Source of the DNA: Desulfobacteraceae bacterium | Lineage (GTDB): Bacteria; Desulfobacterota; Desulfobacteria; Desulfobacterales; ETH-SRB1 | Direction: 5' to 3' | DNA length: 64,000 nucleotides | Assembly: GCA_028571455.1 (NCBI GenBank) | Contig: JAPVVG010000103.1 | Location: 4,847-68,846 of the forward strand | In this document: in pieces, positions 4,998-50,775 of the stretch | Position numbering within the stretch: position 1 is the first letter of the stretch | Layout of the letters: each line of letters starts with the position of its first letter | Made by a program: the position numbers and the translations under genes | The notes under the pieces: model-generated | Seen by the model: the letters and a program-made list of their open reading frames with translations, nothing else | Databases searched by the model: none | What the model was told of the DNA's origin: nothing

Positions 4998-6005
4998 GTG
5001 ATTAAATACGCATTATTTTTGGGCTGCAATATACCGGCAAGGGTAAGCCAGTATGAAGATTCTTCCAGGGCGATTCTAAAGAATTTAGGCGTGGAGTTGA
5101 TTGAAATCCGCGACTTTAGCTGCTGTGGTTATCCGCTGAGAAATATTGACCAAAAAGCATATATTCTGTCTTCAGCCAAAAACCTCGCATTAGCGGAAAA
5201 GAAAGGTCTAAGCATACTGACTCTGTGTAAATGCTGCTTTGGAAGTCTGAAAAAGGCTGAATATCTCCTTAAAGAAGATTCAGACCTGCGACAGGATATA
5301 AACCAGGCGCTCGCTGGTAACGGCTTAAAATATGAAGGCAACATCACTGTAAAACATCTACTTTCCGTCCTTTATCATGATGTGGGCATTAACGCCATAA
5401 AAGGTAGTTTGTCAGGATCATATAAAGACTTAAGGATTGCTACCCATTATGGATGCCACGCCCTGCGTCCCAGCAGAATCACCCGGTTTGACGATCCAGT
5501 TGCCCCTACAATATTTGATGAACTGGTGGAAATAACCGGAGCCGTATCTGTTGACTGGCCCAAAAAACTGGAATGCTGTGGAGCGCCTTTAACAGGAATA
5601 AATGATGATATCTCGATTGGTTTGACAAAAAAGAAAGTGTCAGATGCTAAAAAATCGGGCGCCGACTATCTATGCACAGCCTGTCCATTCTGTCATCTGC
5701 AATTTGATTTTCTTCAAAAGAGGATTATCTCCAATAACGGGAATGGCGAACATCTTGCCCCTATTCTTTATCCCCAGCTTCTTGGGCTGTGTATGGGTAT
5801 CGACAAAGAAACTCTTGGGATCGGTATGAATCTTAATGGATTGATGGTTGAAAAAATAGACCCGCCTGCCTCGCCTGAGCAAGGCAACAAAAAGACGAAG
5901 AGCATTGAGTATGGCTCGCGATGGCGGGCAGGGCGAAGCGATTCCAACAATCATAAATCAACAATCATAAATCAACAATCCAAAAAATTATTACACGGGA
6001 AGTAA
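4998..6005 (+). CDS. hdrB: Heterodisulfide reductase subunit B-like protein (two CCG domains)
   Basis: GTG start preceded by GGGAG. CCG motifs FSCCGYPL and LECCGAPL, plus CPFCH. The C-terminal ~45 aa are encoded by a low-complexity or repeat tract (5858-6005). Confidence 0.75.
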   Translation: MIKYALFLGCNIPARVSQYEDSSRAILKNLGVELIEIRDFSCCGYPLRNIDQKAYILSSAKNLALAEKKGLSILTLCKCCFGSLKKAEYLLKEDSDLRQDINQALAGNGLKYEGNITVKHLLSVLYHDVGINAIKGSLSGSYKDLRIATHYGCHALRPSRITRFDDPVAPTIFDELVEITGAVSVDWPKKLECCGAPLTGINDDISIGLTKKKVSDAKKSGADYLCTACPFCHLQFDFLQKRIISNNGNGEHLAPILYPQLLGLCMGIDKETLGIGMNLNGLMVEKIDPPASPEQGNKKTKSIEYGSRWRAGRSDSNNHKSTIINQQSKKLLHGK

Positions 6006-6007
6006 AA

Positions 6008-9000
6008 ATGCCGAAGGATAAAACAGGCTCGGTAATGGTGGTTGGCGGCGGAGTCAGCGGAATGCAGGCTGCATTGGATCTGGCTGATTCCGGGTATTAT
6101 GTCTACCTTGTAGAAAGGTCCAGCTCAATCGGCGGGATGATGTCGCAACTGGATAAGACCTTTCCCACCAATGACTGTGCCATGTGTATTATGTCCCCTA
6201 AGCTGGTAGAAGTCGGCCGGCACATTAATATAGAGTTGCTAACCCTTTCTGAGGTGAACGGCATTTCCGGCGAGGAGGGGGATTTTGAGGTCAGTGTGAC
6301 ACAACATCCACGTTATGTGGATACTGATAAGTGCATTGCGTGCGGCCTGTGTGCCGAGAAATGTCCCAAAAAAGTGCTTAATGAGTATGATGGCGGGCTG
6401 AGTAGGCGTAAGGCAATTTATGTGAAATATCCTCAGGCTGTTCCTTTAAAATATTCTATTGATGCAAAAAATTGTATCTACTTTAAAAAGGGAAAATGCA
6501 GAATATGCGAAAAATTCTGCCCCAAAGGGGCTATCAATTTTGACGATCAAAAAAAGGAATTAACCCTGAAAGTAGGGGCTGTTGTCTTAGCCTTGGGGAG
6601 CAAGGTCTTTGATCCGAGCGTCCATGATACTTACGGCTACAAGAAATATCCCGATATTGTGACCAGCCTGGAATTTGAGAGGATCCTTTCTGCTTCCGGT
6701 CCTTATGGCGGACACCTAATTCGGCCATCAGATAAAAAAGAGCCTGAAAAGATTGCCTGGCTTCAATGCATAGGGTCCAGAGATGAGCGCCCTGGCGCCA
6801 GAGGATACTGCTCTGCTGTCTGCTGCACCTACGCAATTAAGGAAGCCATGTTGGCCAAGGAACACAGCAAAGGGGAGCTTGATACAGCCATTTTTTATAT
6901 TGATATCCGTACTCACGGGAAAGACTTTGAGAGATATTTTAACCGCGCAAAGGATGAATCAGGGATCCGTTTTATCAAATCGAAAATTACCAGCATTCCC
7001 CTGGTTAATGAAACAGGAAAGCATCTTATCCGCTATATAGACGAGGCCGGCAAGAGAGTCGAAGAAGAATTTGACATAGTGGTACTGTCCGTAGGCCTGG
7101 GCATAACCAAGAAAAGTGCGGATCTGGCTCAAAAATTGGGTATCGAACTTAATCGCTATAATTTTGCAGCCACCACCAGCTTTGAACCTGTCGTCAGTTC
7201 CAGGCCGGGCATCTATGTTTGCGGCGCTTTTCAGGCTCCCAAGGATATTCCGTCGTCGGTTATAGATGCCAGCGCTGCCGCAGGCGCTGTGGGGAGCAAA
7301 TTAGCCGAATCTCGGTGGACCCTCACAAAAACAAAACATATCCCTGAGGAAATTGATATACGCGGGGAACCCACTCGGATCGGCGTTTTTGTCTGCCGTT
7401 GCGGCACAAATATTGCCAGCACTGTTGATGTTCCTCTTCTGGTTGAGTTTGCGCAAAGCCTGCCCGGTGTTGTTTATGCGGAGGAAAACATGTTCAGTTG
7501 CTCCCAGGACACCCAGGATAAAATAACCAGGGTTGTTAAAGAGCAACGATTGAATCGGATGGTTGTCGCGGCTTGCACCCCTAAGACGCATGAACCGCTT
7601 TTTCAGGAGACTTTAATCAACGCGGGTATCAATAAGTATCTTTTCGAGATGGCCAATATCCGCAACCTGTGCTCCTGGGTACATAAGGACAATCCCGAAC
7701 AAGCCACGCAAAAAGCCAAAGATCTCATTAGAATGGCCGCAGCAAAGGTGGCCCTCTTTGAACCACTGACCGAACCTGTTATGCAGATTAATCAAAAGGC
7801 CCTTGTTATTGGGGGAGGCGTCGCGGGTATGGTGGCAGCCAAGAACCTGGCAGAGCAGAGCTACGTAACATACCTGATTGAAAAGACCGATATCCTTGGT
7901 GGACAGGCACGGCATCTCCACGAAACCTGGCAAGGTGAGGACATTCAACAATATTTAGCCGGCCTGATAGAGGAGGTACGGTCCGACAAAAACATAGAAA
8001 TATTCCTGAATTCCCAGATCGAACATGTGGACGGTTTTGGAGGGGATTTCAAAACAACGATCCAGCACAATGGCGAGAGCAAAGTCCTGGAACACGGGGT
8101 GACGATTATTGCATCCGGCGCCTCGGAGCTTGTGCCCAATCAGTATCTTTACGGCAAAGACCCTCGTGTTGTAACCGGTTTGGAATTTCAGCAAAGTCTG
8201 ATTGATAATGATCCCTCGTTAGGACAGCTCAATACGGCTGTGTTTGTACAATGTGTTGGTTCGCGTATCCCGCAGCGGCCTTACTGCTCTAAGGTCTGCT
8301 GCACACAGTCGATTAAAAGCGCCGTAAAGCTCAAAGAGATCAATCCCAAAATGAACATCTTTGTGCTTTACAGGGATATGCGACCCTATGGCCTGCGAGA
8401 GGATCTTTATCGAGAAGCGCGCTCTGCCGGAATTAACTTTGTCCGCTATGATTTTGACAAGGAGTTAACAGTAGCAGCCGAACAGGGGAATTTACAGGTT
8501 GCTTTCATTGATTGCGTGCTCAGGCGGAAAATGGAGATCCGGCCCGACCTTTTGATTCTGGCCTCTGCTATTGTCCCGGAAAAAAAGAATCCATTAGCGC
8601 AGTTCTATAAAGTGCCGCAGAATGATGACGGTTTTTTTGTAGAAGCGCATGTCAAACTCCGGCCTGTTGATTTTGCCACAGACGGCGTGTTCGTGTGTGG
8701 GCTTGCCCATGCCCCGAAAACGATAGATGAATCCATAACACAGGCTCAGGCCGCAGCAGCAAGAGCCGTGACGCTTCTGTCCGCGATGAGCATCTCGGTG
8801 AGCGGCACAACAGCTTATGTCAATCCAAACTTTTGCAGCAGTTGCGGCGTTTGTGTATCAATATGCCCATATTCTGCTGCCATGTTTAATGAAAAAAGCG
8901 GTAAAGCTGAAATTGAGCCGACATTGTGTAAAGGGTGTGGTCTTTGCGCTGCATCCTGCAGATCAGGGGCTATTAATCTTAATGGATTTGATAATGATCA

Positions 9001-11635: not shown

Positions 11636-12481
11636 ATGCAAAATCCATATTTACCATATCCTGTTCGCATAGAGGAAATAATAACCGAAACCGAAGATAA
11701 AAATCTTAAAACATTTAAGTTGGTCTTTTTAAACCCTGATGACCAGGAAAAATTTTTATATAAGGCTGGACAGTTTGCAGAGCTTTCCGTGGCGGGAAAA
11801 GGAGAAGTGCCTATAGGAATTGCCTCATCCCCTTCGGAAAAAGGATATCTGATGTTTACCATCAACAAGGTCGGGCTGGTTACTACCACCCTCCATTGCA
11901 TGAAACCGGGAGATATTATGGGTATTCGCGGGCCTCTTGGCAACAGTTATCCCTGGGATATCCTAAAAGGAAAAAATGTTGTGATAATCGGCGGCGGATT
12001 TGCCTTTACCACGCTTCGCTCCGCCATAGTATATATGCTTGATCCTGTGAATCGCCCGAATTTCAAAAAAATCCATGTAATATATGGCGCGCGGTCTCCA
12101 GGTATGCTTTTATATAAGGATGAACTGGCTGCATGGGAAGCACGTGATGATATTAATATGCATATTACCGTTGATTCAACAGAGGATCCAACCTGGAAAT
12201 ATAATGTCGGGTTTGTGCCGACCATCACCGAACAAAAAGCGCCTCCGGGCAATGAGGACACATACGCCATTATTTGCGGCCCGCCGATCATGATCAAATT
12301 TACCCAGCCGGTATTAGACAGGCTCGGCTATTGCCATGACAAGATCATTATGTCCCTTGAAATGCGCATGAAGTGCGGCATTGGAATGTGCGGCAGGTGC
12401 AATATCGGAAAAGAATTTGTATGCAAAGACGGACCGGTTTTTACGCTGGCTCAGTTAAATGAAATGCCAAAGGAATATTGA
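11636..12481 (+). CDS. FAD/NAD(P)-binding oxidoreductase with C-terminal [2Fe-2S] motif, FlxA/PyrK/AsrB-like
   Basis: ATG at 11636 follows AAGGAAA. It has a ferredoxin-reductase-type fold (VIIGGGFAFTTLRS) and C-terminal CGIGMCGRCN...C. Confidence 0.7.
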   Translation: MQNPYLPYPVRIEEIITETEDKNLKTFKLVFLNPDDQEKFLYKAGQFAELSVAGKGEVPIGIASSPSEKGYLMFTINKVGLVTTTLHCMKPGDIMGIRGPLGNSYPWDILKGKNVVIIGGGFAFTTLRSAIVYMLDPVNRPNFKKIHVIYGARSPGMLLYKDELAAWEARDDINMHITVDSTEDPTWKYNVGFVPTITEQKAPPGNEDTYAIICGPPIMIKFTQPVLDRLGYCHDKIIMSLEMRMKCGIGMCGRCNIGKEFVCKDGPVFTLAQLNEMPKEY

Positions 12482-12753
12482 TGGTTTCGTAAAAATTCAT
12501 AAAACCACTTTTCACGAAATGTGTTAAGCGTTAGGTGTTAAGCGTTAAGCGTTTGATATGATAGATAATTACCTTATCTTAACACCTAACACTTAACACC
12601 TAACACCTGATAGATTAGCCTTTTTACGAGTTTATTATGTTTTAATATTGACATTTATTAATTAATAATATATTGAAGTTAGGTAAATTAATACGAGATT
12701 AAAGGGCGGAAAGCCATAATAATTTTATTTTTTTACAAAGGAGGGATTTTTTT

Positions 12754-14633: not shown

Positions 14634-14734
14634 AATAGTTACCTGTAATATAATTAATTTTTTTTAAAGTAAAACAACAAAAATCAACAAGATGTCTGTC
14701 ATCAGCATTCCCGTACAAAATAAAGCAACTCAAG

Positions 14735-14840
14735 TTTGATGAATTCGTAAAAAGTCAAAAATCGAGTCACTCCCGCGAAAGCGGGAGTCCATAACAACCT
14801 GTAATTACTGGATTCCCGCTTTCGCGGGAATGACGGTTAA
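14735..14840. repeat. Interspersed palindromic repeats (two CCCGCGAAAGCGGG-type hairpins), same family as 1796-2045
   Basis: ACTCCCGCGAAAGCGGGAGT at 14769-14788. ATTCCCGCTTTCGCGGGAAT at 14812-14831. Confidence 0.8.
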
Positions 14841-15072
14841 GAGGTATGTTGGACTTTCAAATAACTAAATCATAACCTTTTGATATGATTGACAAGTTAT
14901 TTTCGGTTACAGTGCCGCAGGCGACATAAAATAACTTTTTATAAGAATATCAATATTAAAGATTTGTGTCAAATTTATCTGTTTTTTTCTTTACTTAATT
15001 ATCAGTTATTGTTATAATTTGTAAATTAAACTTTTATCAACAGTTTGAAAGCAAACAAAATCGTCTTTATAC

Positions 15073-15296
15073 GTAGCCGTTCACGGCTTGAAACTTGAAA
15101 TTAGAAAGTAGAAATTTGGGAGAAAGCAGGTATGCATTCCCACGCAGGAGCGTGGGAACGAGCCAAACGCAACAGAATACAAAGCAATAGTTGAAAAACT
15201 CGGCCCAAAATTGAATGCGTTTATCAACAGTACAAAAGCATGAAGGCCAAATTTCCAATTTCTATTTTCTAATTTCAACGTTCCGTGAACGCTTAC
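15073..15296. mobile_element. MITE-like palindromic cassette, copy D1 (about 45-bp imperfect terminal inverted repeats; internal remnant of a four-helix-bundle gene 3' end)
   Basis: Left arm is GTAGCCGTTCACGGCTTGAAACTTGAAATTAGAAAGTAGAAATT. Right arm is its imperfect reverse complement. The interior encodes ...EYKAIVEKLGPKLNAFINSTKA-stop. Confidence 0.7.
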
Positions 15297-15329
15297 CTTT
15301 ATACAAAGGGTTACTGGAGGATTATAAAA

Positions 15330-15485
15330 ATGGACATCAGCAGAAAGTTGGGCATTTTAGTTTTTTGTGCTGTACCGGCAATTATTGGCGGAGGTATTGT
15401 TTACGCTATTTTTGGAACTTATCCCTCTGTTTTCATATTTGAAATCCTTCTTTTATTCGTAGCTTTAGGCATTATCAGCAAGTAA
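15330..15485 (+). CDS. Hypothetical small membrane protein
   Basis: ATG at 15330 follows GGAGG. Sequence MDISRKLGILVFCAVPAIIGGGIVYAIFGTYPSVFIFEILLLFVALGIISK has two hydrophobic helices. Confidence 0.35.
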   Translation: MDISRKLGILVFCAVPAIIGGGIVYAIFGTYPSVFIFEILLLFVALGIISK

Positions 15486-15792
15486 AGTGGGTCGTTCAAA
15501 AAATCACGGATCTTGAGGCCAGGGGTAAGGAATAAAGATCTTAGCGCACAGAAATTTAATTCGCTCGTTTTTCCCGTGGCCTGTCTGCGTCTGCCTGTGC
15601 GTGCCTGCACGCAGACAGGTCTGCCTGCGCGTTGCATCTGCCTGCGTGCTATTTTCCACCAAACAGGTCCGAACGGGTCGTTTCCGGATCGAAATTTTAT
15701 TCCAAGCAGTAAATTATCGGTTAATCAATTAGCCAAATCGATATGTTCTGAAACTACGAGCGTTACTTATTGATTTTGTTCCTGGAGGTATT

Positions 15793-16878
15793 ATGCGAGA
15801 TAGCAATTCTCGAAATATCATTTTCTGGTTTTTTCTATCCCTTTTTATCCTTTCAATTGCAATGCTCGCATGGCTTATATGGCCATTTATATCGATAATT
15901 ATTCTTGCCTCTGTTATTACAGGCATTTTCAGCCCTGTTTTTAATTTAATAAGTGTAAAAAATAAAATAACCCCCCCTTTTGCCTCATTTTTAACCTGCA
16001 TTTTAATATTTTGTATCGTGCTTGTTCCCATAGGATTTTTTGTGGGCATACTATCAAAAGAGGCGCATGATCTTTATATAACCGCTAAGAGCGCATTATT
16101 AAATGACCAGCTAAAAAATCTTATTTCAAACAGCGGTCTTCTTGAAAAAGCAAACCTTGTGCTCACGCATTTCAATATTGAACTCACCGGAGAAGCGCTA
16201 AACAAGGCTATTTCAGAAATTGGTAAAATTGTTGGCCTTTTTCTTTACGAGCAGGCCAGATCAATTGCCGCAAATACACTCGCATTTTTTGTAAACATAT
16301 TTCTTATGCTTCTCGTCGTCTATTTTCTTCTAATCGATGGAAACAAATTGATTTCTTTTATTACCGATCTTTCCCCGCTCCCAAAAGAACAGGACGAAAA
16401 ATTAATCCGAAAATTTAAGGATATGGCGGGAGCCGTTCTGATCGGCAACGGTCTTGGTGGTTTGATCCAGGGAATATTGGGCGGAACCGTTTTCATGCTG
16501 TTTGGTTTAAAGTCCCCTTTTCTGTGGGGTGTGATAATGGCTCTGCTTGCATTTCTTCCTATAATAGGGATTGGAGTTGTATTTATACCAGCGGCTATAT
16601 ATCTTTTTTTAAAAGGACAGATCGCCTCTGCTATCTTCTTTGTTATTTTTTATATAATCCTTTCCGGTGGCATTGAATACATCTTCAAACCGAAAATAGT
16701 GGGCCAGCGCGTTAAAATGCATACACTTCTTGTATTCTTTTCCATAATCGGAGGCCTGAAGCTGTTCGGAATTCTTGGCATTATATACGGCCCGCTTATT
16801 GTAACCGCGTTTTTGACCCTGACCGATATTTATCATGCCAGTTACCAGAAACTGCTTGGGCCAAAGGAATTGACATAA
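15793..16878 (+). CDS. AI-2E family transporter (PerM-like permease)
   Basis: 361-aa polytopic membrane protein with the typical AI-2E length and topology. Confidence 0.7.
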
Positions 16879-19328
16879 TGTATACAGGAAAAATGTCGGA
16901 AATCAGCATTGAAAGCGAGATGAAAAAATCTTATCTCGATTATGCCATGAGCGTAATCATAGGAAGGGCTTTGCCGGATGTTCGTGACGGCCTGAAACCT
17001 GTACACCGACGTGTGCTGTATGCAATGCGTGAGCTTAAAAACGACTGGAACAAACCTTATAAAAAGTCTGCCCGCATTGTCGGAGATGTTATCGGCAAAT
17101 ATCATCCTCATGGTGATACTGCCGTCTATGACACAATTGTGAGGATGGCGCAGGATTTTTCTTTAAGGTATCTTCTTATAAACGGCCAGGGAAATTTTGG
17201 CTCCGTTGACGGGGATTCTCCCGCAGCAATGAGATACACAGAGATCAGAATGACGCGCCTGGCACATCAGATGCTGGAAGATTTGGACAAAGAAACAGTT
17301 GGCTGGGTCCCGAATTATGATGAATCCTTGAATGAGCCCTTAGTGCTTCCTGCCAAGCTTCCTAATCTCTTGATCAATGGTTCTTCCGGCATAGCGGTCG
17401 GCATGGCGACTAATATTCCGCCGCATAATCTTTCTGAAATAATTGCGGCAATAAATGCGATAATAGACAACAATGCAATTTCATGTCAGGACCTTATGAA
17501 ATTGGCACCTGGGCCTGACTTTCCTACAGGCGGCATTATTTACGGAACAACCGGTATAATTGACGCATATAAAACCGGACGCGGCATAATTCGTGTAAGA
17601 GCAAAAATTCAAATCGAAAAGGACAAAAGAACGCAAAGTGAAACCATAATAATTACACAGCTCCCTTATCAGGTTAATAAAGCTAAGCTTGTTGAAAAAA
17701 TTGCCGGAATGATAAGGCACAAGCAAATAGAGGGAATAAGATATGTAAGGGATGAATCCGACAGAGAGGGAATGCGGATCGCTATCAGCCTTAAGAGGGA
17801 TCAGATTGCAGGGGTGGTGATTAATCAGCTTTATAAGCACACACAGTTGGAGAATACTTTTGGCATTATACTTCTTGCTATTGTAAACAACCGGCCGCAG
17901 CTTTTATCTTTTAAAGAAATCCTTGAACATTTTATTTACCACCGCAAAAACATAATTATTCGGCGGACCAGTTATGATCTGAAAAAGGCCAGGGCGCGCG
18001 CTCATATACTCGAAGGCTTGAAAGTCGCCCTTGATAATCTTGATAATGTTGTTTCCCTTATTAGAAAATCAAGATCTCCTGCTGATGCAAAGACAGGTCT
18101 GATTCAAAAATTTGACTTAAGCGCAATCCAGGCTCAGGCAATATTGGAGATGCGCCTTCAAAGGCTTACCGGTCTTGAACGTGAAAAAATATTAGAAGAA
18201 TACAAGAACGTTTTACAAGATATCGCAAGATTCAAAGAAATACTTGCCAGCGAAAAAATAGTAGAACAAATCATCAAAGAGGAGCTTTCCGAGATACAAA
18301 ATGAATTCGGAGATCCTCGCCGCACTGAAATACTGGAATCTACAAAGGAGATTACAATAGAGGACATGATTGTTGAAGAGGATATGGTCGTTACCATATC
18401 CAACAGCGGTTATATAAAGCGAAATCCAATTACCCTTTATCAAAGTCAGCGGCGGGGCGGTAAAGGAAAGACAGGCATGGGAATAAAGGAGGAAGATTTC
18501 GTCAAACTTCTTTTTGTAGCCTCCACTCACCATACATTCCTTTTTTTTACAAATCTTGGAAGGGTTTACTGGCGCAAAGTATATGATATCCCTCAGGCAG
18601 GTCGTTTGAGCCGCGGCAAAGCGATCGTTAATTTTCTTAACTTTGAAAAGGATGAAAAGCTTACAGCGGTGCTTGATGTGCCGTCATTTGAACCGGGCTA
18701 TCATGTTATTATGGCCACAAAAAACGGGCTTGTAAAAAAGACCGAACTTATGGCTTACAGCCACCCCAGGGCAGGAGGTATCATAGCCTTGAAACTTGCC
18801 TTAGATGATAAATTGATCGGAACACGGATAACAGATGGAACAATGAATGTCTTTCTGGGCTCTGCTGCTGGCAAATCAATACGTTTCCACGAATCTGATG
18901 TTCGCCCAACAGGCCGCGTTACAGGTGGGGTACGTGGGCTGAAGCTGGCTACCGGTGACCATATAGTCGGCATGGAGGTTTTGAGCCATGGCCAGACATT
19001 ATTTACAGCCACAGAAAACGGGTATGGGAAAAGAACATCGATCGATGAATATCATGTTCAAAAACGTGGGGGTAAAGGTGTGATTACCATCAAAACAAGT
19101 AAGCGGAATGGGCTTGTAGTTGCAATGCTTCTTGTGGAAGAGGATGACGACCTTATGCTCATGACTAACAGCGGCAAGATTATACGCATGCCCATAAAAG
19201 GAATTTCGATTATCAGTCGCAACACCCAGGGCGTAAAGCTTATAAATATTAATCCAGGAGAAAAGGTGATCGGGGCTGCCGGGCTTGCTGAAAAGGAAGA
19301 GGAAAAGGTAATACAACTCAATGAATAA
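16878..19328 (+). CDS. gyrA: DNA gyrase subunit A
   Basis: 816 aa. Contains [24 protein letters not shown] and the active-site region AAMRYTE, followed by C-terminal beta-pinwheel repeats. Confidence 0.95.
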
Positions 19329-20352
19329 TATAGATGTAAATTCCACAAAGATAGGTGTCGTTGGAGGTGGAAGCTGGGGGACAACTCTGGCCAATCTTCT
19401 TGGCCGGAAAGGTTTTAATATTGACCTGTGGGTATTTGAAGCTGAAGTAATTAAGCAGATTAAGGAGTTAAGAGAAAACAGGCTGTTTCTTCCCGGTATT
19501 TCCCTCTCCTCAAACATATGCCCGTCAAACGATCTGTCTCGCGTTGTATCGGGCAAGGACCTGGTGCTTATTGTTGTGCCCTCTCACTTTATGAGGGAAA
19601 CATCACATAAAATTGCCGGATATGTTTCAAAGGATACCATAATAGTTTCTGCCTCAAAAGGGATTGAGAACAAAACCCATTTAACCATGTCCGGCGTGCT
19701 TAAAGAAACACTTCCGAAAATTCCTGAGAAGCATATTGCAGCTCTTTCCGGTCCCAGTTTTGCCCGTGAAGTTGCTTCAAATGTTCCAACCTTGGTCGCT
19801 GTGGCATCAAAAGACAAAAAGACGGCCTCCTTTGTACAGCATGTTTTTGTCACTCCTCTTTTTAGAGTGTACACAAATAATGATATTATCGGGGTGGAAT
19901 TAGGCGGCTCTGTCAAGAATGTAATTGCCATTGCCTCAGGAATGATCGATGGGCTCGGTTTTGGCCTGAATACCAGGGCGGCTCTGATTACCAGGGGTCT
20001 CACGGAAATCAGGCGTCTTGGCTTAAAACTTGGGGCAAACCCACGCACATTCACCGGCCTGACCGGTGTTGGAGATTTGATCCTGACCTGCACCGGAAAG
20101 TTAAGCCGCAACTACACTGTCGGCAAACAGTTAGGCCGGGGTAAGAGGTTGCAGGATATCCTGTCTGAAATGCGCATGGTTGCCGAAGGAATTAAAACAG
20201 CCAAATCTGTTTACAACCTGTCTCGCAAGATCGGTGTTGAAATGCCGATTTGTCACGAGATCTACCATATACTTTATGACGATGCTTCTCCAAAAGAGGC
20301 ATTGCAAAGGCTAATGACTCGCGATCTTAAACATGAGCTGGATGAATTGTAG
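19321..20352 (+). CDS. gpsA: NAD(P)H-dependent glycerol-3-phosphate dehydrogenase
   Basis: 343 aa with [12 protein letters not shown] and conserved GpsA core motifs. Confidence 0.9.
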
Positions 20353-20409
20353 GCACAACGAGATCAGAGGTCAGAAGTCAGAAGTCGGTGGATAGAGTGT
20401 TATAAAAAA

Positions 20410-20697
20410 ATGAAAGATAAAAAGAAGGAATATCCATCCTGTTTTGGAATATTAGACAGGGTTTTTCCCACAGGGGAGGAAGGTCTTAGAAGCAGCCCTG
20501 AGGCCTGTCTTGAATGCATTTACAAAACAGAATGTCTAAGATCTGCCATGGCTGGATCCGGCGGGTTAACAGTCCATGAAGAATTGGTGGACAGGGCCTA
20601 TGAGTCCGGTATGATCGGTTTTCTGAGCAGATGGTCCAAAAAGAAAGACTTAAATCGCAAGATAAAAACGCAAAGCGCAAAATATAAGGATAACTAA
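20410..20697 (+). CDS. Hypothetical protein (four Cys, basic C-terminus)
   Basis: 95-aa ORF in a gene-sized gap between gpsA and pgk. No family recognised. Confidence 0.4.
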   Translation: MKDKKKEYPSCFGILDRVFPTGEEGLRSSPEACLECIYKTECLRSAMAGSGGLTVHEELVDRAYESGMIGFLSRWSKKKDLNRKIKTQSAKYKDN

Positions 20698-20701
20698 AGG
20701 T

Positions 20702-20822
20702 GTAGCCGTTCACGGCTTGAAACTTGAAATTAGAAAGTAGAAATTGGGAAGAACGGTACAAAAGCATGAAGGTCAAATTTCCAATTTCTATTTTCTAATT
20801 TCAGCGTTCCCTGAACGCTTAC
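20702..20822. mobile_element. MITE-like palindromic cassette, copy D2 (shortest; arms plus about 20-bp core)
   Basis: Same terminal arms as D1 and D3. The interior is reduced to ...GGTACAAAAGCATGAAGG. Confidence 0.7.
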
Positions 20823-20856
20823 AAAAATTACCAGGTTCTTTCCAGGAGAGTACATA

Positions 20857-22056
20857 ATGAAATCAATCAGAGAAATAGATATTACAAACAAGACTGTTTT
20901 CATCAGGGTCGATTTTAATGTTCCTATGGATGAACAGCAGAATATTACAAATGACACCAGGATTCAGGCTGTTCTTCCCACCTTAAGATATGCTCTGGAC
21001 AATCAGGCAAAGCTGATCGTAGCTTCACACATGGGCAGACCAAAAGGAAAGAAATTGCCTGAACTAAGCCTTAAACCAATAGCCAAACGGTTGGGCAGGC
21101 TGCTTGAAAAGGATGTGAAGATGGCAAACGATTGCATAGGTCCTGATGTGAAATCGCTTGTATCAGCTATGAAAACAAGCGATATTGTTCTTCTCGAAAA
21201 CTTACGATTCCGTAGAGAAGAACAGAAAAATAACGATAAATTTGCTAAAGAGCTTGCATCGCTTTGCGATGTATATGTAAATGATGCCTTTGCCGTATCA
21301 CACCGCGTCAACGCTTCTGTTGTTGCTATTACAAAATATGCGCCTGTGTCGGTCGCCGGCTTCTTGCTTCAAAAAGAAATCGGTTATTTTTCAAAGATAA
21401 TGGCTAATCCGCAACACCCTGTTGTCGCAATTATCGGCGGCGCAAAAGTATCGGACAAGCTTATGGCATTAGCTAATATGCTGGATCACGTTGATAAGTT
21501 CATAATCGGCGGAGCCATGGCAAACACCTTCTTGAAAAGCAAAGGCTATGGTGTCGGGAAGTCAAAAATCGAAGAAAATCTTGTAGAAGCAGCCGGATCG
21601 ATAATGAAAAAAGCAGCCAAACGCAAAATCAAGTTCTATCTCCCGGTTGATGCCGTAGTCGCAAGACGCTTTGATCCAAAAGCTCAAACAAAATTAGTGC
21701 CTATACAGGAGATCCCTGAAAACTGGATGGCCATGGATATAGGCCCTGCCACCTCTTTGCTATTTTCCGAAGTTCTTTATGACGCAAAAACAGTAATTTG
21801 GAACGGCCCCATGGGTGCGCTTGAAATTGACTCTTTCAGCAGAGGCACAATTGCCATGGTCCACAGCGTAGCCAACTGCTATGCCCTCACTATTGTCGGC
21901 GGCGGCGAGACGGATATCGCTATCCATAAAGAAAAGGCAGACGACAGGATAACATATATTTCAACAGGTGGGGGGGCATTTCTCACAATGTTAGAGGGGA
22001 AGACATTGCCTGCAGTAGCTGCTCTGCAGAATTGTGAAAAGAAAATGGATAAGTAA
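20857..22056 (+). CDS. pgk: Phosphoglycerate kinase
   Basis: 399 aa with RVDFNVP and ASHMGRPKG motifs. Confidence 0.95.
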
Positions 22057-22140
22057 TAATTGGAAAGGTAGTAATAATTTAGCGCTTTGAAAATTTGGCT
22101 GTTTTCGTTGAGATGTTGCTAATTCGAAAAAGCATTATTT

Positions 22141-22265
22141 GAATATCGAATGTGGAACAAGGAATGTCGAATGATGAATTGTGGAATCGCTACGCTCTAT
22201 CTTTTATAGTAGTAAAAATGATAGAATACCTTACTTCGACATTCATAATTCTTTGTTCGATATTC
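22141..22265. repeat. Palindromic element with arms built from short words (GAATATCGAA.../...TTCGATATTC)
   Basis: Left arm 22141-22190 and right arm 22230-22265 are imperfect reverse complements. Both begin GAATATCGAA. Confidence 0.6.
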
Positions 22266-22313
22266 TGCGGTTCAAAAACCGCTGTCAAAGTTAAATTTTT
22301 TCAAAAAGCTAAA

Positions 22314-23051
22314 ATGTTACGAAAGGTAAACATTATAGCCCTAATGGTTCTAAAGTCTTTTTCCGCTAAACATATTGCTTTAATACTTATAATTTTCTTC
22401 TCCCTTGCATTGCCGGGTTATTTCTACAGAACGCAATTATGGGAAAGCGCTGCGCAGTGCTATAATCTTTTTATTGACAGAGAAAAAGTTGCAACATTTA
22501 TCACATCATTCGGCATGGCAGCGCCTGTGATTTTTATGATCATCCAGATGCTCCAGGTGCTCTTTGCTCCTGTCCCCGGCGAAGTTAGCGGCTTTATCGG
22601 AGGCTATCTGTTCGGAGCAACTAAAGGTTTCCTGTATTCCAGTTTAGCTCTGACTATAGGATCGTTGATCAATTTTGTTATCGGCCGCTTTCTGGGAAAA
22701 CATTATATCAGAAAGCTTATCCCAAGCATTTATTTAAACAGATTCGACACTATTTGTAACCGTCAGGGAATTTTTGTTTTTTTTATTTTATTTGTTTTTC
22801 CAGGCTTTCCAAAGGACTATTTTTGTTTTTTTTTAGGCTTAAGCGCCATTCCTGCCAAAGTTTTCATTATTATTGCCTGCATAGGGCGTATGCCTGGAAC
22901 ATTTATGCTAAGCCTTCAGGGGGCATCGATTTATGAACAAAATTATAAGCTATTCGCCATTGTCCTTGGCTTAAGTATTGTTATTGCCCTATTTGCATAC
23001 AGGCGCAGAGAAACTCTTTATCAGTGGATGGAAAGGTTTAATAATAAATAA
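22314..23051 (+). CDS. TVP38/TMEM64 (DedA-related) family membrane protein
   Basis: Start is moved to ATG 22314 because the upstream part of the track ORF lies in the repeat element. Sequence VLFAPVPGEVSGFIGGYLFG fits the family. Confidence 0.65.
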   Translation: MLRKVNIIALMVLKSFSAKHIALILIIFFSLALPGYFYRTQLWESAAQCYNLFIDREKVATFITSFGMAAPVIFMIIQMLQVLFAPVPGEVSGFIGGYLFGATKGFLYSSLALTIGSLINFVIGRFLGKHYIRKLIPSIYLNRFDTICNRQGIFVFFILFVFPGFPKDYFCFFLGLSAIPAKVFIIIACIGRMPGTFMLSLQGASIYEQNYKLFAIVLGLSIVIALFAYRRRETLYQWMERFNNK

Positions 23052-23110
23052 TCGGTTGTTGACGGTTATTGACGGTTGAAGTAAATGATGATAATTGAAA
23101 TAATAAGTGA

Positions 23111-23274
23111 CTACTCACGTAGTCAGGCTGAAGCTGTTTAGACTGAAGGCTGAAGGGGTCAGAAGAGCACGATTGCCGTACTTTGGCGGAAATATCTGAT
23201 TCTTGCACCAAATATGGCTTCAAAATGCGCTTTTTCCTAACAGTCTTCAGCCTTCAGCCTATCTACCTGAGTAG
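23111..23274. mobile_element. MITE-like palindromic element, copy G1 (CTACTCACGTAG...CTACCTGAGTAG termini; CTGAAGG-word arms)
   Basis: Near-identical second copy at 55828-55984. Confidence 0.7.
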
Positions 23275-23320
23275 TTACAATAATAGTTGCCAATGATAAA
23301 CATACAACGGGGCTTGAAGA

Positions 23321-24406
23321 TTGATCAGCACAGTGGAAAAAAAACTTGCATTCTGGAGCGTAAGGGAGGAACTTAGCCAGGCAAACAGATTAAGGCGCTC
23401 ATATTACGAGCTTTTGAGAGATGAGCTGGATCAATTCGTGATCCAGCATTCCCTGATAGATTCATATCATAACTTTATTGGCAAAAAACTTCCTTATCCC
23501 TTTGTTGAAAAACGGGAACTCAAACCACGCGCTCGCATCCCGGATGTTGAATACGAATGCCAGAATACCTTTCTTGTAATCTTTATTGAGGATACGCTAC
23601 CTGCAAGCCACAAGAAATATATTAGATTCTTTGATGTTAACAAAACCACAAAGGCTAATTTACTTCCCTTCAAAGCCCTTCCTCTTTCAGGTAAATTTGA
23701 CAGAAATCAAAAATACTTAGAGTCTGCCCATTTTTTTAATTTTTTAAGAGTTCTTCTTCCGGTCGATTATGCCCTTCTTATTCAAAGGGATCCGGCCAGC
23801 AAGACCAGGGCCCGATATGATCTTTCCCACTTTCATGTTAAAATAGACTGGCCGATTGCTGAGGCTGCAGAGAATCTTGCCCAAAGTCTTCGATATATAT
23901 CAAAAGACCTGTATGAAAAAGGGGATAAATACGCTGAAGATATACAGAAGAAATTTTTCGGATATTACGGGCTCCCTGTAATGTCCGGGGGAAGAAGGAC
24001 GGCAGCTATTGTGGCGGCCCAGTATTTGAAAAGGCTCCCATGTATCTCAACCGTATACGCAGGAAGCAGTGAATCAAGAGCTCTTATACGCATTTCTGAA
24101 AGGGGAACATCTAAATCGGTTCTAATGAAGCTCACAGAGGAAGAAATGAAACAGACTGCAGAGGATAATAATCTTGCGCTGCAGACTTTCAAGAAGAATT
24201 ATATGATTTCCCGCAACAGGAAGAATGGCGTATTTATTTTCCAGGCCACCTATTCATTTACAAACGCTGCCAGATCGCCTGATGATGGTAAGCTGAGGGA
24301 GCTTATCCCTGATCTTTACTGGCTGACGGTCGGCGGGCAGCATATACTCCCAAAACCCGGCGTGTGGAAGTATCCCCCGCTATCGTTAAATGTTATCTAT
24401 TCGTAG
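23321..24406 (+). CDS. Hypothetical protein, no recognisable domain
   Basis: 361-aa ORF with a TTG start. Its stop codon TAG (24404-24406) lies inside the first bases of element D3. Confidence 0.45.
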   Translation: MISTVEKKLAFWSVREELSQANRLRRSYYELLRDELDQFVIQHSLIDSYHNFIGKKLPYPFVEKRELKPRARIPDVEYECQNTFLVIFIEDTLPASHKKYIRFFDVNKTTKANLLPFKALPLSGKFDRNQKYLESAHFFNFLRVLLPVDYALLIQRDPASKTRARYDLSHFHVKIDWPIAEAAENLAQSLRYISKDLYEKGDKYAEDIQKKFFGYYGLPVMSGGRRTAAIVAAQYLKRLPCISTVYAGSSESRALIRISERGTSKSVLMKLTEEEMKQTAEDNNLALQTFKKNYMISRNRKNGVFIFQATYSFTNAARSPDDGKLRELIPDLYWLTVGGQHILPKPGVWKYPPLSLNVIYS

Positions 24407-24651
24407 CCCCGCCACGGCGGGGCTTGAAACTTGAAATTGGAAAGTAGAAATTGGGAAGACTTGTCTGCGTGCGGGCACGCACAGGCAGGGATGAAACGAG
24501 TTTACGAGTTGGATGTTTACAAGCTGGCAGAATACAAAGCAATAGTTGAAAAACTCGGCCCAAAATTAAATGCGTTCATCAACAGTACAAAAGCATGAAG
24601 GCCAAATTTCCAATTTCTATTTTCCAATTTCAACGTTCCGTGAACAGTTAC
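24403..24651. mobile_element. MITE-like palindromic cassette, copy D3 (contains an internally deleted four-helix-bundle gene remnant)
   Basis: The interior encodes ...RVYELDVYKLAEYKAIVEKLGPKLNAFINSTKA-stop, an N-terminal-like segment fused to a C-terminal-like segment. The arms match D1 and D2. Confidence 0.7.
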
Positions 24652-24659
24652 ATTCATAA

Positions 24660-25130
24660 TTAATTTATATTCTTCATCATTGCTATTGCATCGCAATCCG
24701 GGAACTTGACGCACAGCAGGCAGTCTCCCCAGATTTTAAGCGGGAGCTCAGATCTGTCTATTTCCACAAAACCGTATTTCTTAAAAAATCCAGGCCGGTA
24801 GGTAAGAGTAAATACCTTTTTCATATTATATGATTTTGCCTCGGAAAGGACTGCTTCTGTGAGCCTTGAGCCGATATTTTTATTAGTGTGCTCAGGATAA
24901 ACCGCTAATGATCGTATTTCCGCCAAGTCCTCCCAGCAAAATTGCAAAGCACAGCAACCCAGAACTTTATTTTCCTGATCATCTACATATACCGAAAAAT
25001 CTCTGAGATGATCATAAAGTTCACTTAAAGGTCGAGAAAGAAGTTCTCCTTTTTTTCCATATTCATCAAGAAGCCTGTGAATAGCTTTTATGTCACTTAT
25101 TTGTGCTTTTCGAATCATAATAATTAACAT
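24660..25130 (-). CDS. GNAT family N-acetyltransferase
   Basis: 156 aa. The likely true start is MIRKAQISD at 25118. GNAT core: LAVYPEHTNKNIGSRL. Confidence 0.8.
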   Translation of the reverse strand: MLIIMIRKAQISDIKAIHRLLDEYGKKGELLSRPLSELYDHLRDFSVYVDDQENKVLGCCALQFCWEDLAEIRSLAVYPEHTNKNIGSRLTEAVLSEAKSYNMKKVFTLTYRPGFFKKYGFVEIDRSELPLKIWGDCLLCVKFPDCDAIAMMKNIN

Positions 25131-26868: not shown

Positions 26869-26990
26869 AGGCTAACCTGTGTAAAACTTTTGTAAAATCA
26901 AAAAAATTACTTTAATTTATTTAACTTTTTTGTAATACTATAATATTTTTAAAATAGTTTTTAACTTTTTACGAAGCCATCATATAGCAT

Positions 26991-32288: not shown

Positions 32289-32534
32289 GTTACTGATTTA
32301 CTAATGGATCCATAGTTCCCCCAATCCCACGGGCTATGATGTGATGCAACGCACCAGGCGCATCTATTCTCGACTTTCTTGGCATGATAAACGCTTAGCA
32401 CATCAATTATCATTTGCAAACTGTAAAACTAAAGGGCATCCCCAAAGAATTTCTATAACATTTTATCTGACATGGGTCAATAGTAGACTTGACCCCATTT
32501 CTACAGTAGACTTGACCCCATTTCACAGCTAAAT

Positions 32535-39264
<6,730 letters not shown>

Positions 39265-39493
39265 TGTTTCTGTCTAACTTATTAAATTTAAAAAGGTTAT
39301 TTTCTGTTTTCTGCGAAACTGTTTTTTCAACGTATAATATCTTCGATTATCAAAAAACATTTTTGGCAAACTCCTTGTTTTCAACACATTACACGCAGTG
39401 CGAACCATTTTAGCAATATCTGCCTCCAAATAAAGCCCCTGCGGGAGCGATATCGGATACAGTCATTTGCGAGCTTCCGGTTCGCAGATAGTT
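39265..39493 (-). other. CRISPR leader (AT-rich, between cas2 and the first repeat)
   Basis: 229-bp AT-rich non-coding interval directly between the cas2 stop and the newest repeat. No promoter could be pinned down by eye. Confidence 0.7.
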
Positions 39494-39793: not shown

Positions 39794-40825
39794 CTACTTC
39801 CAGATAAAAGGTGGATAACCATCCAGGTCTCCGCGCAAGTAACGAGCCATCAACAAGGCCTGCATATGAAACAACAAGCCGATTGTAACCTTTTCTTCAA
39901 TAAACGGATGCATTATCTCATCTTGTTTTCTTCTCTGATAGGCAACCAAAACAGTCTTTCTTGTCTCGTCATCCATCAATACAGCGCCTGATTCTGACTT
40001 TTTAAATCCTTTTTTCTGCACCTGTGAAAGATTTATCAGCGAAAGTGTTAAACGATCTGCAATAAAAGGACGAAATTCTTCCATCAGGTCGAGTGCAAGT
40101 CCGGGCCTGCCCGGACGGTCTCTGTGCAAAAAACCAACCGCTGGGTCCAATCCCACAGATTCAAGGGCAGAACGAACATCGTGCATTACAAGTGTGTATA
40201 AAAACGACAGAAGGCAATTTACGTTGTCCAATGGTGGCCGTCGATTTCGATCCTGGAAAAAGAAGTCTTTTTTTTGAGAGGTAATCAGGTGATCAAATAC
40301 TTTAAAATAGACATGCGCTGCATCACCTTCAATGCCTCGCATGGAATCCAAAGGTACATCTTCCTGTAAACGCTTCAGAGAATAGCTAATCTGCTTTGAT
40401 ACTTGGCTGACTTTATCTGCATCAAGCTTATCGGAGTGGTCTCTTAATGCCCTTTGCAGTACAGTGCGGCAGTTGGCAAGTTTGCCGGTAAGCACAGATC
40501 TTGCCATTTGAGCAGAAAAAGTCATGTCATCTGCCCTGCGGTATTGTTCCCGCCGCAGCAGGACATTTCCGGAAACAGGGCCCTGCACCCTTGCAAGAAA
40601 GCGTCCATACTCAGATAAAAAGCTGATAGACACATCGCGCTCGGCGCAAAAGCCCATCAAAAACGGGCTGCAACCTACATTGCCAAAACAGACAATCCCT
40701 CCTAATGTATGGACGGGAACACGCAAGCGGGTTTGTTTTTCCACCCTTACGATAACCGATTCGCCTTCTTTTGCAAGATAGGCTCCCTGTGTAGTTACAA
40801 AAAGGGTATTAAGATGTCTTTTCAT
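39794..40825 (-). CDS. cas1: CRISPR-associated endonuclease Cas1 (type I-C)
   Basis: 343 aa with the conserved Cas1 core. ATGA overlap with cas4. Confidence 0.95.
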   Translation of the reverse strand: MKRHLNTLFVTTQGAYLAKEGESVIVRVEKQTRLRVPVHTLGGIVCFGNVGCSPFLMGFCAERDVSISFLSEYGRFLARVQGPVSGNVLLRREQYRRADDMTFSAQMARSVLTGKLANCRTVLQRALRDHSDKLDADKVSQVSKQISYSLKRLQEDVPLDSMRGIEGDAAHVYFKVFDHLITSQKKDFFFQDRNRRPPLDNVNCLLSFLYTLVMHDVRSALESVGLDPAVGFLHRDRPGRPGLALDLMEEFRPFIADRLTLSLINLSQVQKKGFKKSESGAVLMDDETRKTVLVAYQRRKQDEIMHPFIEEKVTIGLLFHMQALLMARYLRGDLDGYPPFIWK

Positions 40826-41472
40826 GATTCTCGAATCGCTCCCGACAAGTAGCGTTTTACTGAACGTTTTCTTTCAATAGTTTTCGGCAGGCATATCTTC
40901 GCCAGTGAACAACTGTCACACTTTGGCGTATAGACTGGTTTTGGAGTCAGGCCGGATGCAATCAGTTCGTGGAGACGCATTGCCGTGTCTTCAGTCTGCT
41001 GTCTCAATGCGCCATCAAAGATAACATCTGTTCTCCGGCGCTTCTTCCCATAAAAAAGCGCACCGCACGGAACCTCAACATTTAGCATTTCTTCCAGACA
41101 GAGCGCCTGAGCGCAAAGCTGTACCTTATCGCAATTATTCTTCTTTGGTTTGCCGCGTTTATATTCCACGGGAAACGGTATCCACACCAACGATCCTGCT
41201 TTCTGCAAAGCCGGCTTTCGATGAAACTCAACAACGTCCGCCTTGCCGATTAGCCCCAGCCGAAATGAACGAAGCCACATGCTGTACTCAATGCGAACTT
41301 TGCCTCTGGATTGCCGATCTGCCTCATGAACCCGCTCGTGCATAATTTTGCCTTCGGCAGTAAAAAGGTTTTCCGCCCACGCCTGCTCAATATGTATTAG
41401 AGCGCACTGCCGCTCGCAAAAAATCAGATGCTGCAAGGCAGAAAGTGGAATGAGGTCGTCTTCTGAGTACAT
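40822..41472 (-). CDS. cas4: CRISPR-associated exonuclease Cas4 (RecB-like nuclease with 4-Cys cluster)
   Basis: 216 aa with an N-terminal Cys (FCERQCAL), C-terminal CDSCSLAKIC and a nuclease core (IGKADVVEF). Confidence 0.9.
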   Translation of the reverse strand: MYSEDDLIPLSALQHLIFCERQCALIHIEQAWAENLFTAEGKIMHERVHEADRQSRGKVRIEYSMWLRSFRLGLIGKADVVEFHRKPALQKAGSLVWIPFPVEYKRGKPKKNNCDKVQLCAQALCLEEMLNVEVPCGALFYGKKRRRTDVIFDGALRQQTEDTAMRLHELIASGLTPKPVYTPKCDSCSLAKICLPKTIERKRSVKRYLSGAIRES

Positions 41473-41499
41473 ATAAAAAAATTCTGAAACTTTTCAGTA

Positions 41500-42141
41500 T
41501 CAGCCTTCCTCTGAAATAAGGTTCACAATAAGCCGAATCATCAATTCCTTCTGCCCCGGTTCACTCGCTGCCGTCAGAAGGGCAAGCGCCACGAGCGCCT
41601 TGTTGCTGAAGCTTTTTTGATCCAACAAGTCATTCTTTTTGAGAAACAACAGGAAGAGAAAAGAGCCGATCCTCTTGTTACCATCCGTGAAAGGATGATC
41701 CTTGATCACGAAATAGAGGAGATGGGCCGCCAGTCTGCGCTGATTAAGCGAATAACCACGCACGAGATGGTCTTTTAGAACGGTGGTAGCCCAAATGCGA
41801 AACTGAGTGCCGCGTTTAGCATTCACCCGATAACCTACCGCTATAATGACATCTAAATTATAATAATTCGTTTGGTAAGTTTTACCGTCACCAGCAGTAT
41901 GTGCAAATTTTGCACATACTGCCTTTTTATCTAATTCTTCACTCCGAAAAATATTGTTAATATGCTTGGTTACAACACTTCTCTCCGTTTCAAAAAGAGA
42001 GGCTATCTGTTTCTGACTGAGCCATACGGTTTCATCCTGAAGATGAACATCCAGCGCTGCCTGCCCGTCCTCAGACTGATACAATACGATTTCGCCGAGA
42101 TCGGAATTAATGCTTTCGATCTTTCCTGCCTTTCGAGTCAT
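41500..42141 (-). CDS. Chimeric RhuM-N-terminal / Fic-Doc-core protein inserted in the cas operon
   Basis: 213 aa. Residues 1 to about 125 parallel the RhuM protein at 50772-51800 (LSQKQIASLFETERSVVTKHINNIF vs LTQKKMAELFEKGRTTITEHLKNIF; AVGYRVNAKRGTQFRIWAT vs AVGFRVNSHRAIEFRKWAG). The C-terminus carries the Doc-type motif HPFTDGNKRIGSF. Confidence 0.8.
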   Translation of the reverse strand: MTRKAGKIESINSDLGEIVLYQSEDGQAALDVHLQDETVWLSQKQIASLFETERSVVTKHINNIFRSEELDKKAVCAKFAHTAGDGKTYQTNYYNLDVIIAVGYRVNAKRGTQFRIWATTVLKDHLVRGYSLNQRRLAAHLLYFVIKDHPFTDGNKRIGSFLFLLFLKKNDLLDQKSFSNKALVALALLTAASEPGQKELMIRLIVNLISEEG

Positions 42142-42317
42142 TGTTATTGCTCCACGTTGCTACTTTTTTCCTTCAACCGCTTACTGCTTTCCTGTTCAGC
42201 CTTCGGGGATGGGATGGACTGAACAATGCGAAAAATGCCCTCGGTGTTGGCCGTAATTTGTTTTACGCATCTTGCCGTCAAGGGCTTTCAGATGATGATT
42301 TTTGCATTATTGATCAA

Positions 42318-46228: not shown

Positions 46229-46238
46229 TTTAACCTCC

Positions 46239-49675: not shown

Positions 49676-49734
49676 AAAAAACCCGCCGAGGTGCGCATCC
49701 AATGGAGAGGCGTGGCGGGGATTGTTATAAACAA

Positions 49735-50643: not shown

Positions 50644-50775
50644 TTATCTGAAATTACCCATGTCCACATAATCCCGTAACGCATTGGTAAATTCCTTGCC
50701 TTGTCCTTCGAAACAACGGACAACGGCCATAGTGGCATCGATCTGGTAGGGTTGCTGTTTGAATATCAGCTTCAT
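50644..50775 (-). pseudogene. 43-codon stub of a type III restriction (Res) / SF2 helicase gene, ATGA-coupled to rhuM
   Basis: Own translation: MKLIFKQQPYQIDATMAVVRCFEGQGKEFTNALRDYVDMGNFR-stop. It resembles the N-termini of type III Res enzymes. Its ATG overlaps the rhuM TGA. Confidence 0.45.

Follow-up and report, generated by a model that had tools for sequence, protein, structure and literature searches.

How three short palindromic elements come to share the same arms, while differing in what lies between them, is the question raised by a 64,000-nucleotide stretch of a Desulfobacteraceae bacterium (contig JAPVVG010000103.1), hereafter called the window. The elements lie where a sequence-only reading had placed them, all on the plus strand (copies 1 to 3, Table 1). 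That reading took them for derivatives resembling MITEs (transposable elements of the miniature inverted-repeat type), whose cargo, a gene for a four-helix-bundle protein, was eroding. The three elements are probably non-autonomous DNA transposons, namely internally deleted MITEs of a mobile insertion cassette (MIC) of about 450 bp, mobilised by a TnpC transposase of the IS66 type. Both the full-length cassette and its deleted forms have moved, inserting into AT-rich intergenic DNA and duplicating 8 bp of the target site (target-site duplication, TSD), and the insertions differ between genomes that are about 92% identical.

Structure of the three elements

The inverted arms described by the sequence-only reading are real: either arm pattern is present exactly three times in the window and is not expected in shuffles. 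Each right arm is the inverted repeat of the left one, with a complementarity of 88–92%. A periodicity scan shows that they are built of tandem 7-bp units (TTGAAAC TTGAAAT TAGAAAG TAGAAAT TGGGAAG), a feature absent from that reading. The ends also carry small hairpins, GCCG-TTCA-CGGC and AGCGTTC-CCT-GAACGCT.

The interiors of the window copies form a deletion series, which is visible directly in the alignment to an intact parent (L117). The longest, copy 3, contains an in-frame open reading frame (ORF) in which the N-terminal 14 codons of the four-helix-bundle gene are joined to its C-terminal 21 codons. Copy 1 keeps the C-terminal piece of the gene and a nested palindrome, and copy 2, the shortest, keeps a core of about 20 bp. 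All three contents agree with the earlier description.

Two G+C-rich palindromes of 25–35 bp (15591–15625/24454–24488 and 15137–15162/58018–58043) recur in several genomes, both alone and nested in cassettes. This suggests that they are very small insertions targeting these cassettes.

Rfam has no family at the three elements, its only match in the window being the abiF RNA at 49681–49719, and no tRNAs were found. No sigma-70-like promoter lies inside the elements. The only sequence resembling a terminator is found where copy 1 ends on the right (15279–15291), with a weak stem of 5 bp, and the frequency of such sites in the region is not above that in shuffles.

The full-length cassette and its gene

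A scan of one genome per species for the arm pattern gives more than 116 loci in genome contigs, mostly from sediment metagenome-assembled genomes (MAGs) of the Desulfobacterales, SEEP-SRB2 and Eth-SRB1 type. The full-length parent with the same arms that the sequence-only reading called for exists. The element at locus L014, 461 bp long, shares these ends and contains the whole four-helix-bundle gene, interrupted by a single frameshift; L117 and others are intact. The repaired protein of L014 matches PF05635, the protein of 23S rRNA intervening sequences, at 70 bits, and an intact, near-identical homologue (P0002) matches TIGR02436 at 85 bits; a literature search on TIGR02436 gave no match. 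Searching for related proteins gave 909, of which many are intact, 117 residues long and 72–89% identical.

The intact parent L117 comprises, in order, the TSD GATAATCT, the terminus GTAGCCGTTCACGGC, a heptamer arm, GGGAGAG-ATG, 117 codons, the inverted arm, the terminus CCGTGAACGGTTAC, and again GATAATCT, the 8-bp TSD being perfect. In general, the left end of the cassette is GTAGCCGTTCACGG or GTAACCG... and the right end, read inward, is GTAAGCGTTCACGG. Next to the termini are inverted arms of 2–5 tandem heptamers, and the cassette further has a Shine-Dalgarno sequence and a single gene of 117 codons. The full-length form measures about 450 bp, elements of the family range from 105 to 461 bp, and the sole ORF is that of PF05635.

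The ratio of nonsynonymous to synonymous substitution rates (dN/dS) between copies from different phyla is 0.04–0.07 in three of ten pairs, dS being too saturated in the others. Strong purifying selection acts on the four-helix-bundle protein, and its lineages are old. Neither plasmids nor phages gave a BLAST match to the full-length cassette, and the arm pattern has no match in viral contigs. A role of the gene in a defence system was considered and dropped, PADLOC having given nothing meaningful.

Evidence for transposition

Terminal inverted repeats of the canonical form GTAGCCGTTCACGG.../...CCGTGAACGCTTAC are present in 58 copies. Thirteen of these have perfect 8/8 TSDs and six have TSDs of 7/8, so that 19 of 58 are duplicated, compared with 0.4% for each class, or about 0.8% together, in shuffled controls. 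Perfect matches occur in the 8-bp register only, and the target sites are A+T-rich. The duplications that the sequence-only reading proposed to look for are therefore present, and are exactly 8 bp long. An independent metagenome sample contains 27 full-length cassettes with an intact ORF, and eight of these have TSDs of 7–8/8 (control mean 0.56), representing six distinct metagenomic sites. The gene-bearing form therefore transposes too. In addition to the terminal repeats and the fixed TSD, the family shows the small size, high copy number and insertion polymorphism of MITEs and MICs.

A Desulfobacterales MAG locus (L038) is syntenic with window positions 18658–25125 and 90–94% identical to them. 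At a target site that is single and empty in the window (Table 1), L038 has an element of the family in reverse orientation (its positions 7618–7798), with the flanks TAATTGAC and TAATTTAC. At the site of copy 3, L038 contains a quite different palindromic element. Upstream of pgk, at the site of copy 2, its copy has flanks that differ from those of the window, with the TSD GCGTTAGG / GCCTTAGG. The empty site sought by the sequence-only reading is thus found, and the insertions of this relative do not occupy the same orthologous positions as those of the window. Another heptamer-armed element of L038 (668–928), with GGAATTA/AAGGATT units flanked by the ends CCCCGTAATTTA...TAAATTACGAGGG, stands between two genes whose window counterparts overlap (ORF 16878–19328, which we take to be gyrA, and ORF 19321–20352), and is another insertion polymorphism.

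The deletion junctions are shared as well. For copy 2, the junction has 25 occurrences across 21 sources (the window plus 24 places in 20 loci); the fusion junction of copy 3 is present in five loci (the window, L023, L032, L046, and L082), and the junction of copy 1 also in L113. Since these junctions recur at unrelated sites in other genomes, the deleted forms are amplified subfamilies and were not eroded in place. The MITE-like character claimed by the sequence-only reading thus stands, given the TSDs, the parents, and the empty site, whereas its picture of a cargo eroding in place does not.

These data bear on the alternative that the elements are intergenic palindromes of ancient origin that are fixed and decay where they stand, or hairpins moved as single-stranded DNA in the manner of IS200/IS605 or of repetitive extragenic palindromes (REPs) and their REP-associated tyrosine transposases (RAYTs). 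The small terminal hairpins are in line with it, and some copies in other phyla look fixed, such as the one between accB and accC across Xanthomonas. It is nevertheless contradicted by the exact 8-bp TSDs, by presence and absence between close relatives, and by identical deletion junctions at unrelated sites, and it is extremely improbable. To our knowledge, IS200/IS605 and REP elements make no TSDs.

All copies are intergenic and none lies inside an ORF, while many are 0–10 bp from the end of a neighbouring gene.

IS66-type termini and the transposase

The IS66 family is marked by inverted repeats that start with GTAAGCG and by 8-bp direct repeats (PMC11946415). Three members were checked. 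ISEc8 has GTAAGCGTACAGC at both ends and the TSD CATTGCTG; ISEc23 has the right inverted repeat (IRR) GTAAGCGTCAACGGAGC and the TSD CTGAATGG; ISCro1 has a left inverted repeat (IRL) starting GTAACCG, an IRR starting GTAAGCG, and the TSD TACGTTTC. The cassettes resemble them in both respects. Their right end, read inward as GTAAGCGTTCACGG, is identical to the ISEc23 IRR at 14 of 17 positions (manual count), and their left end is GTAGCCG or GTAACCG, the latter as in the ISCro1 IRL. The difference between left and right ends is the same as in ISCro1, and the direct repeats are exactly 8 bp. The GTAAGCG/GTAACCG termini and the 8-bp duplication point to a DDE transposase of the IS66 family (TnpC), and since the element encodes no transposase, the cassette would be moved in trans.

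In contrast to IS66 elements of 2.4–2.7 kb, the cassettes measure 0.1–0.46 kb and lack tnpA, tnpB, and tnpC, and their heptamer arms are absent in the three E. coli IS66 members. Neither the elements nor their flanks contain a homologue of TnpC. The four-helix-bundle protein was also considered as a diverged IS66 TnpA or TnpB, and was rejected with an hhalign probability below 0.1%. The element is therefore at most a non-autonomous relative of IS66 and not a member of the family.

Several observations weigh against mobilisation by an IS66-type transposase. No transposase, whether of the IS66 family or another, was found in the window, in 828 kb of genome loci, or in another 1.05 Mb of loci (about 1.9 Mb altogether), as the sequence-only reading had noted for its three copies; the tblastn query was ISCro1 TnpC, validated as IS66 (478 bits) and 100% identical to annotated genes. 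No pair of termini 0.5–5 kb apart surrounds a transposase gene, and only neighbouring MITEs are seen. Most left ends read GTAGCCG and agree with the canonical GTAAGCG at only 5 of 7 positions. In other phyla, many full-length copies lack termini that can be recognised, so that the link between terminus and cassette is not universal. Copies 2 and 3 of the window lack a clean 8-bp TSD, copy 3 being flanked by a 4-bp repeat (ATTC) only. The absence of a transposase is weak evidence, because MAG assemblies usually break at insertion sequence (IS) copies.

The 14-mer GTAAGCGTTCACGG has 112 single matches in viral contigs, none of them beside an IS66 transposase. Arms that appeared as orphans were examined as possible IS ends and turned out to be one-ended remnants.

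Heptamer arms across subfamilies and phyla

Relatives of the first subfamily, to which the three copies belong, all keep GAAATTR / YAATTTC arms; they come from MAGs of Bacteroidales, Marinimicrobia, and Verrucomicrobiota and from a marine contig (L132), whose copy is bounded by termini of the form GTAAGTG... and by the perfect TSD AAAAAACT. Almost all intact genes of the first subfamily in the metagenome sample lie between inverted arms, with a repeat signal of 0.71–0.92 at period 7 against 0.3–0.5 at periods 6 and 8. Among relatives that are 64–73% identical, the unit has drifted to GAAACTN. GGCAGTC, GTCTCAT, and GGCAAAC are the heptamers of several very distant members, and some lack heptamers altogether.

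The window also contains an intact cassette of a second subfamily (Table 1), which takes up the entire interval between two convergent genes, of which one is presumably efp from its N-terminal sequence. The TAGGCTG/CAGCCTA arms are kept by relatives of its gene from a MAG of the Verrucomicrobiota (L138) and from two metagenome contigs that are unclassified (L139 and L140), and L139 has GTAACTGCTTAGG... / ...CCTGAGTAGTTAC termini and a 7/8 TSD.

The non-coding arms keep the same heptamer despite saturated synonymous sites, which points to sequence recognition and not to the stem alone. Left arms usually have 4–5 units and right arms 1–4; the full hairpin is therefore not maintained. Because the arms are conserved where synonymous sites are saturated, and because the numbers of units on the two sides often differ, they are probably sequence-specific protein-binding sites rather than mere hairpin stems.

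The binding protein could be the product of the cassette itself. The four-helix-bundle protein would then be a mobility factor or an obligatory adaptor, whose pentamer binds the arms and recruits a nuclease, transposase, or reverse transcriptase, and the full-length cassette would be semi-autonomous and parasitised by the MITEs. Several findings fit this idea: full-length cassettes with intact ORFs have themselves transposed, the gene is under purifying selection (the dN/dS values given above), each protein subfamily keeps its own heptamer across phyla with arms conserved despite synonymous saturation, and no transposase was found nearby. In the literature on diversity-generating retroelements, the homologue Avd is a nucleic-acid-handling accessory protein of these retroelements. 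A mobility role for the ORF of rRNA intervening sequences (IVSs) was proposed by Ralph and McClelland, as cited in PMC4990558. The idea remains unlikely, as the protein is a helical bundle of 117 residues with no known catalytic motif and no detectable similarity to IS66 TnpA or TnpB. A DDE transposase already accounts for the 8-bp TSDs and the GTAAGCG termini, and descent of gene and arms as one unit would give the same pattern.

A wider reading, which is speculative and on balance doubtful, unites all heptamer-armed four-helix-bundle cassettes in one ancient mobile superfamily, whose own pentameric protein binds the arms and is needed for mobilisation. Its members would be the first family, the second subfamily of the window, the GGGAATC pairs of Xanthomonas, and the S23p-bearing 23S IVSs, a grouping that is equally doubtful; the cyanobacterial heptamer repeats are possibly further members.

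The window has five further places with runs of tandem heptamers (Table 1), where GTTAAGC and TTGGACG/TTCGATG make up gene-less inverted pairs and GTCAGAG and CAATCAT make up solo arrays. These runs are probably what is left, empty or with one arm, of other families of four-helix-bundle cassettes.

Comparison with known systems

MIC231: MIC231 of Bacillus cereus is a mobile insertion cassette (Chen et al. 1999, cited in PMC6199540). Like MIC231 and its MITE derivatives, the cassettes have IS-type inverted repeats around a passenger gene, a TSD, and no transposase. Shorter, gene-less derivatives exist in both cases, and mobilisation in trans is presumed. Unlike MIC231, the cassettes have ends of the IS66 type and not of the IS231/IS4 type, always carry the same small four-helix-bundle gene, have long arms of tandem heptamers, and occur in several phyla.

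23S rRNA intervening sequences: Like the IVSs of Coxiella burnetii and Leptospira (PMC4990558), the cassettes have a PF05635 ORF flanked by complementary ends able to pair into a long stem, as well as tandem heptamers just 5' of the ATG, and their ORF is prone to internal deletion. The Coxiella IVS has tandem GACAGAT just 5' of the S23p ATG, and RNase III cuts at the first heptamer (PMC4990558). Unlike IVSs, the cassettes lie between protein-coding genes, with no rRNA in the window, and show IS-like termini and clear TSDs. In an operon transcript, the arms would pair into a stem like the RNase III targets of rRNA IVSs; RNase III cutting itself is a property of IVSs, whereas the cassettes are known here from predicted stems of 25–30 bp.

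This likeness could mean that the elements are primarily RNA-level structures, as rRNA IVSs are, but placed in operons, with stems kept by the host as RNase III or stability sites and with spread being secondary. The sense (plus) strand folds better (-44.8 against -39.5 kcal/mol, z = -6.8), mismatches within the arms are G-T on that strand and never A-C, and copy 3 has one compensatory change from A-T to G-C. These signs of sense-strand pairing are weak evidence of constraint. The layout of heptamer plus S23p is the same as in the Coxiella IVS, and the downstream gene is co-oriented with the element in 35 cases against 16. This explanation is nonetheless improbable, since it leaves the TSDs, the empty sites, and the amplified deletion subfamilies unexplained. 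The arms commonly have unequal numbers of units (4 against 1–3), so that the full stem is not kept, the G-T positions are few and inherited from a common ancestor, and elements occur in both orientations.

Heptameric repeats of Xanthomonas and Nostoc: The repeats GGGAATC of Xanthomonas and GGGGAYT of Nostoc have been described as G-quadruplex formers, GGGAATC being a highly enriched "quadruplex-forming repeat" with 70–75 convergent pairs per genome (PMC4692102). That study draws no connection of the heptamer repeats to four-helix-bundle genes or mobile elements. Like them, the arms of the cassettes are intergenic tandem heptamers, often in convergent inverted pairs. One GGGAATC pair flanks a four-helix-bundle gene of the XCC0516 type: the Xanthomonas homologue of the crystallised XCC0516 (PDB 2gsc) lies between accB and accC (L141), with GGGAATC GGGAGTG GAGAATC GGGAATC on one side and the inverted CCCATTC CCCATTC CCGACTC CCTATTC on the other. 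Unlike these repeats, the heptamers of the window family are A+T-rich and cannot form quadruplexes.

Diversity-generating retroelements: Avd is a distant sequence relative of the cassette protein and belongs to the same four-helix-bundle fold family. The Avd scores are below the cut-offs, at 28.9 bits against 80 for DivGenRetAVD and 21 against 40 for bAvd. Unlike these retroelements, the cassettes examined hold one gene only, although no search was aimed at a reverse transcriptase or at template and variable repeats.

Other features of the window

Beside the cassettes, the window contains two small repeat families, a CRISPR array with an adjoining type I-C cas operon, and a long direct repeat. 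The Abi_2 (abortive infection) gene with its abiF RNA motif, the RhuM-family gene, and the Fic/DOC gene look like a defence or mobile island beside the CRISPR locus.

Table 1. Coordinates of the elements and of other features in the window
Feature	Position	Strand	Details
Copy 1, 224-bp MITE	15073–15296	+	left terminus GTAGCCGTTCACGG, right terminus ...CCGTGAACGCTTAC
Copy 1, heptamer arms	left 15088–15122, right 15246–15277		
Copy 1, TSD	left 15065–15072, right 15297–15304		perfect 8 bp, CTTTATAC
Copy 1, nested palindrome	15137–15158		TTCCCACGC-AGGA-GCGTGGGAA; also at 58018–58043 and in L113
Copy 1, gene remnant	15163–15243	+	last 26 codons, PNATEYKAIVEKLGPKLNAFINSTKA*, from alignment to intact parent
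Copy 2, 121-bp short-form MITE	20702–20822	+	junction GGGAAGAAC-GTACAAAAGCATGAAGG; no recognisable TSD
Copy 3, 249-bp MITE	24403–24651	+	variant left terminal hairpin GCCCCGCC-ACG-GCGGGGC
Copy 3, nested palindrome	24460–24489		CTTGTCTGCGTGCGGGCACGCACAGGCAGG, 5' of the ATG; also at 15591–15625 and in L038, L003, L116, L070, L077
Copy 3, fusion ORF	24491–24598	+	in-frame, 35 codons, MKRVYELDVYKLAE/YKAIVEKLGPKLNAFINSTKA*
Empty target site	25121–25128		TAATTAAC, single; filled in L038
Second-subfamily cassette, intact	60346–60797	-	inverted arms TAGGCTG / CAGCCTA at 60346–60375 and 60739–60797
Second-subfamily four-helix-bundle gene	60372–60728	-	PF05635, 113 bits; 27% identical to first subfamily
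Further heptamer runs	12516–12618; 61406–61517; 57805–57999; 20357–20395; 5945–5985		
Two small repeat families	1895–2041, 12474–12511, 14732–14769, 26955–26983; also 1813–1838, 14766–14834		one with ends TGATG..TCGTAAAAAGTCA; the other the palindrome GTCATTCCCGCGAAGGCGGGAATCCA, also nested inside a cassette in L067
CRISPR array and adjoining type I-C cas operon	32526–39400 and 39794–48698	-	about 102 repeats (GTTTCAATCCACGCCCCCGCATGGGGAGCGAC); Cas3, Cas5d, Csd1, Cas7, Cas4, Cas1
RhuM/Fic fragment ORF	41503–42141		between cas7 and cas4
Abi_2 gene	48764–49719	-	abiF RNA motif (RF03085, 39.9 bits) directly upstream
RhuM-family gene	50775–51800		
Fic/DOC gene	53158–54282		
144-bp direct repeat	23110–23253 and 55827–55970		97% identical, 32.7 kb apart

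Significance

The elements belong to a MIC/MITE series with IS66-type ends. Its distinctive features are the invariable S23p/Avd-like cargo, the subfamily-specific heptamer arms, the occurrence in many phyla, and the structural identity with rRNA IVSs. The origin and movement of the 23S rRNA IVS and of the S23p ORF have been unresolved since the early 1990s. The functionality and origin of IVSs are called "unclear" (PMC4990558). Here a module of gene plus heptamer stem is caught behaving as a DNA transposon, which provides a concrete and testable mechanism for the spread of IVSs. Inverted heptamer repeats that had no explanation, such as the GGGAATC of Xanthomonas, are tied to a family of four-helix-bundle genes, and a handle is gained on a very large Avd-related protein family of unknown function. 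In sediment Desulfobacterales, elements inside operons beside start and stop codons can confuse annotation and assembly. If the superfamily reading were true, it would provide the first function of PF05635 outside diversity-generating retroelements, and would explain the origin of rRNA intervening sequences and of dispersed heptamer repeats.

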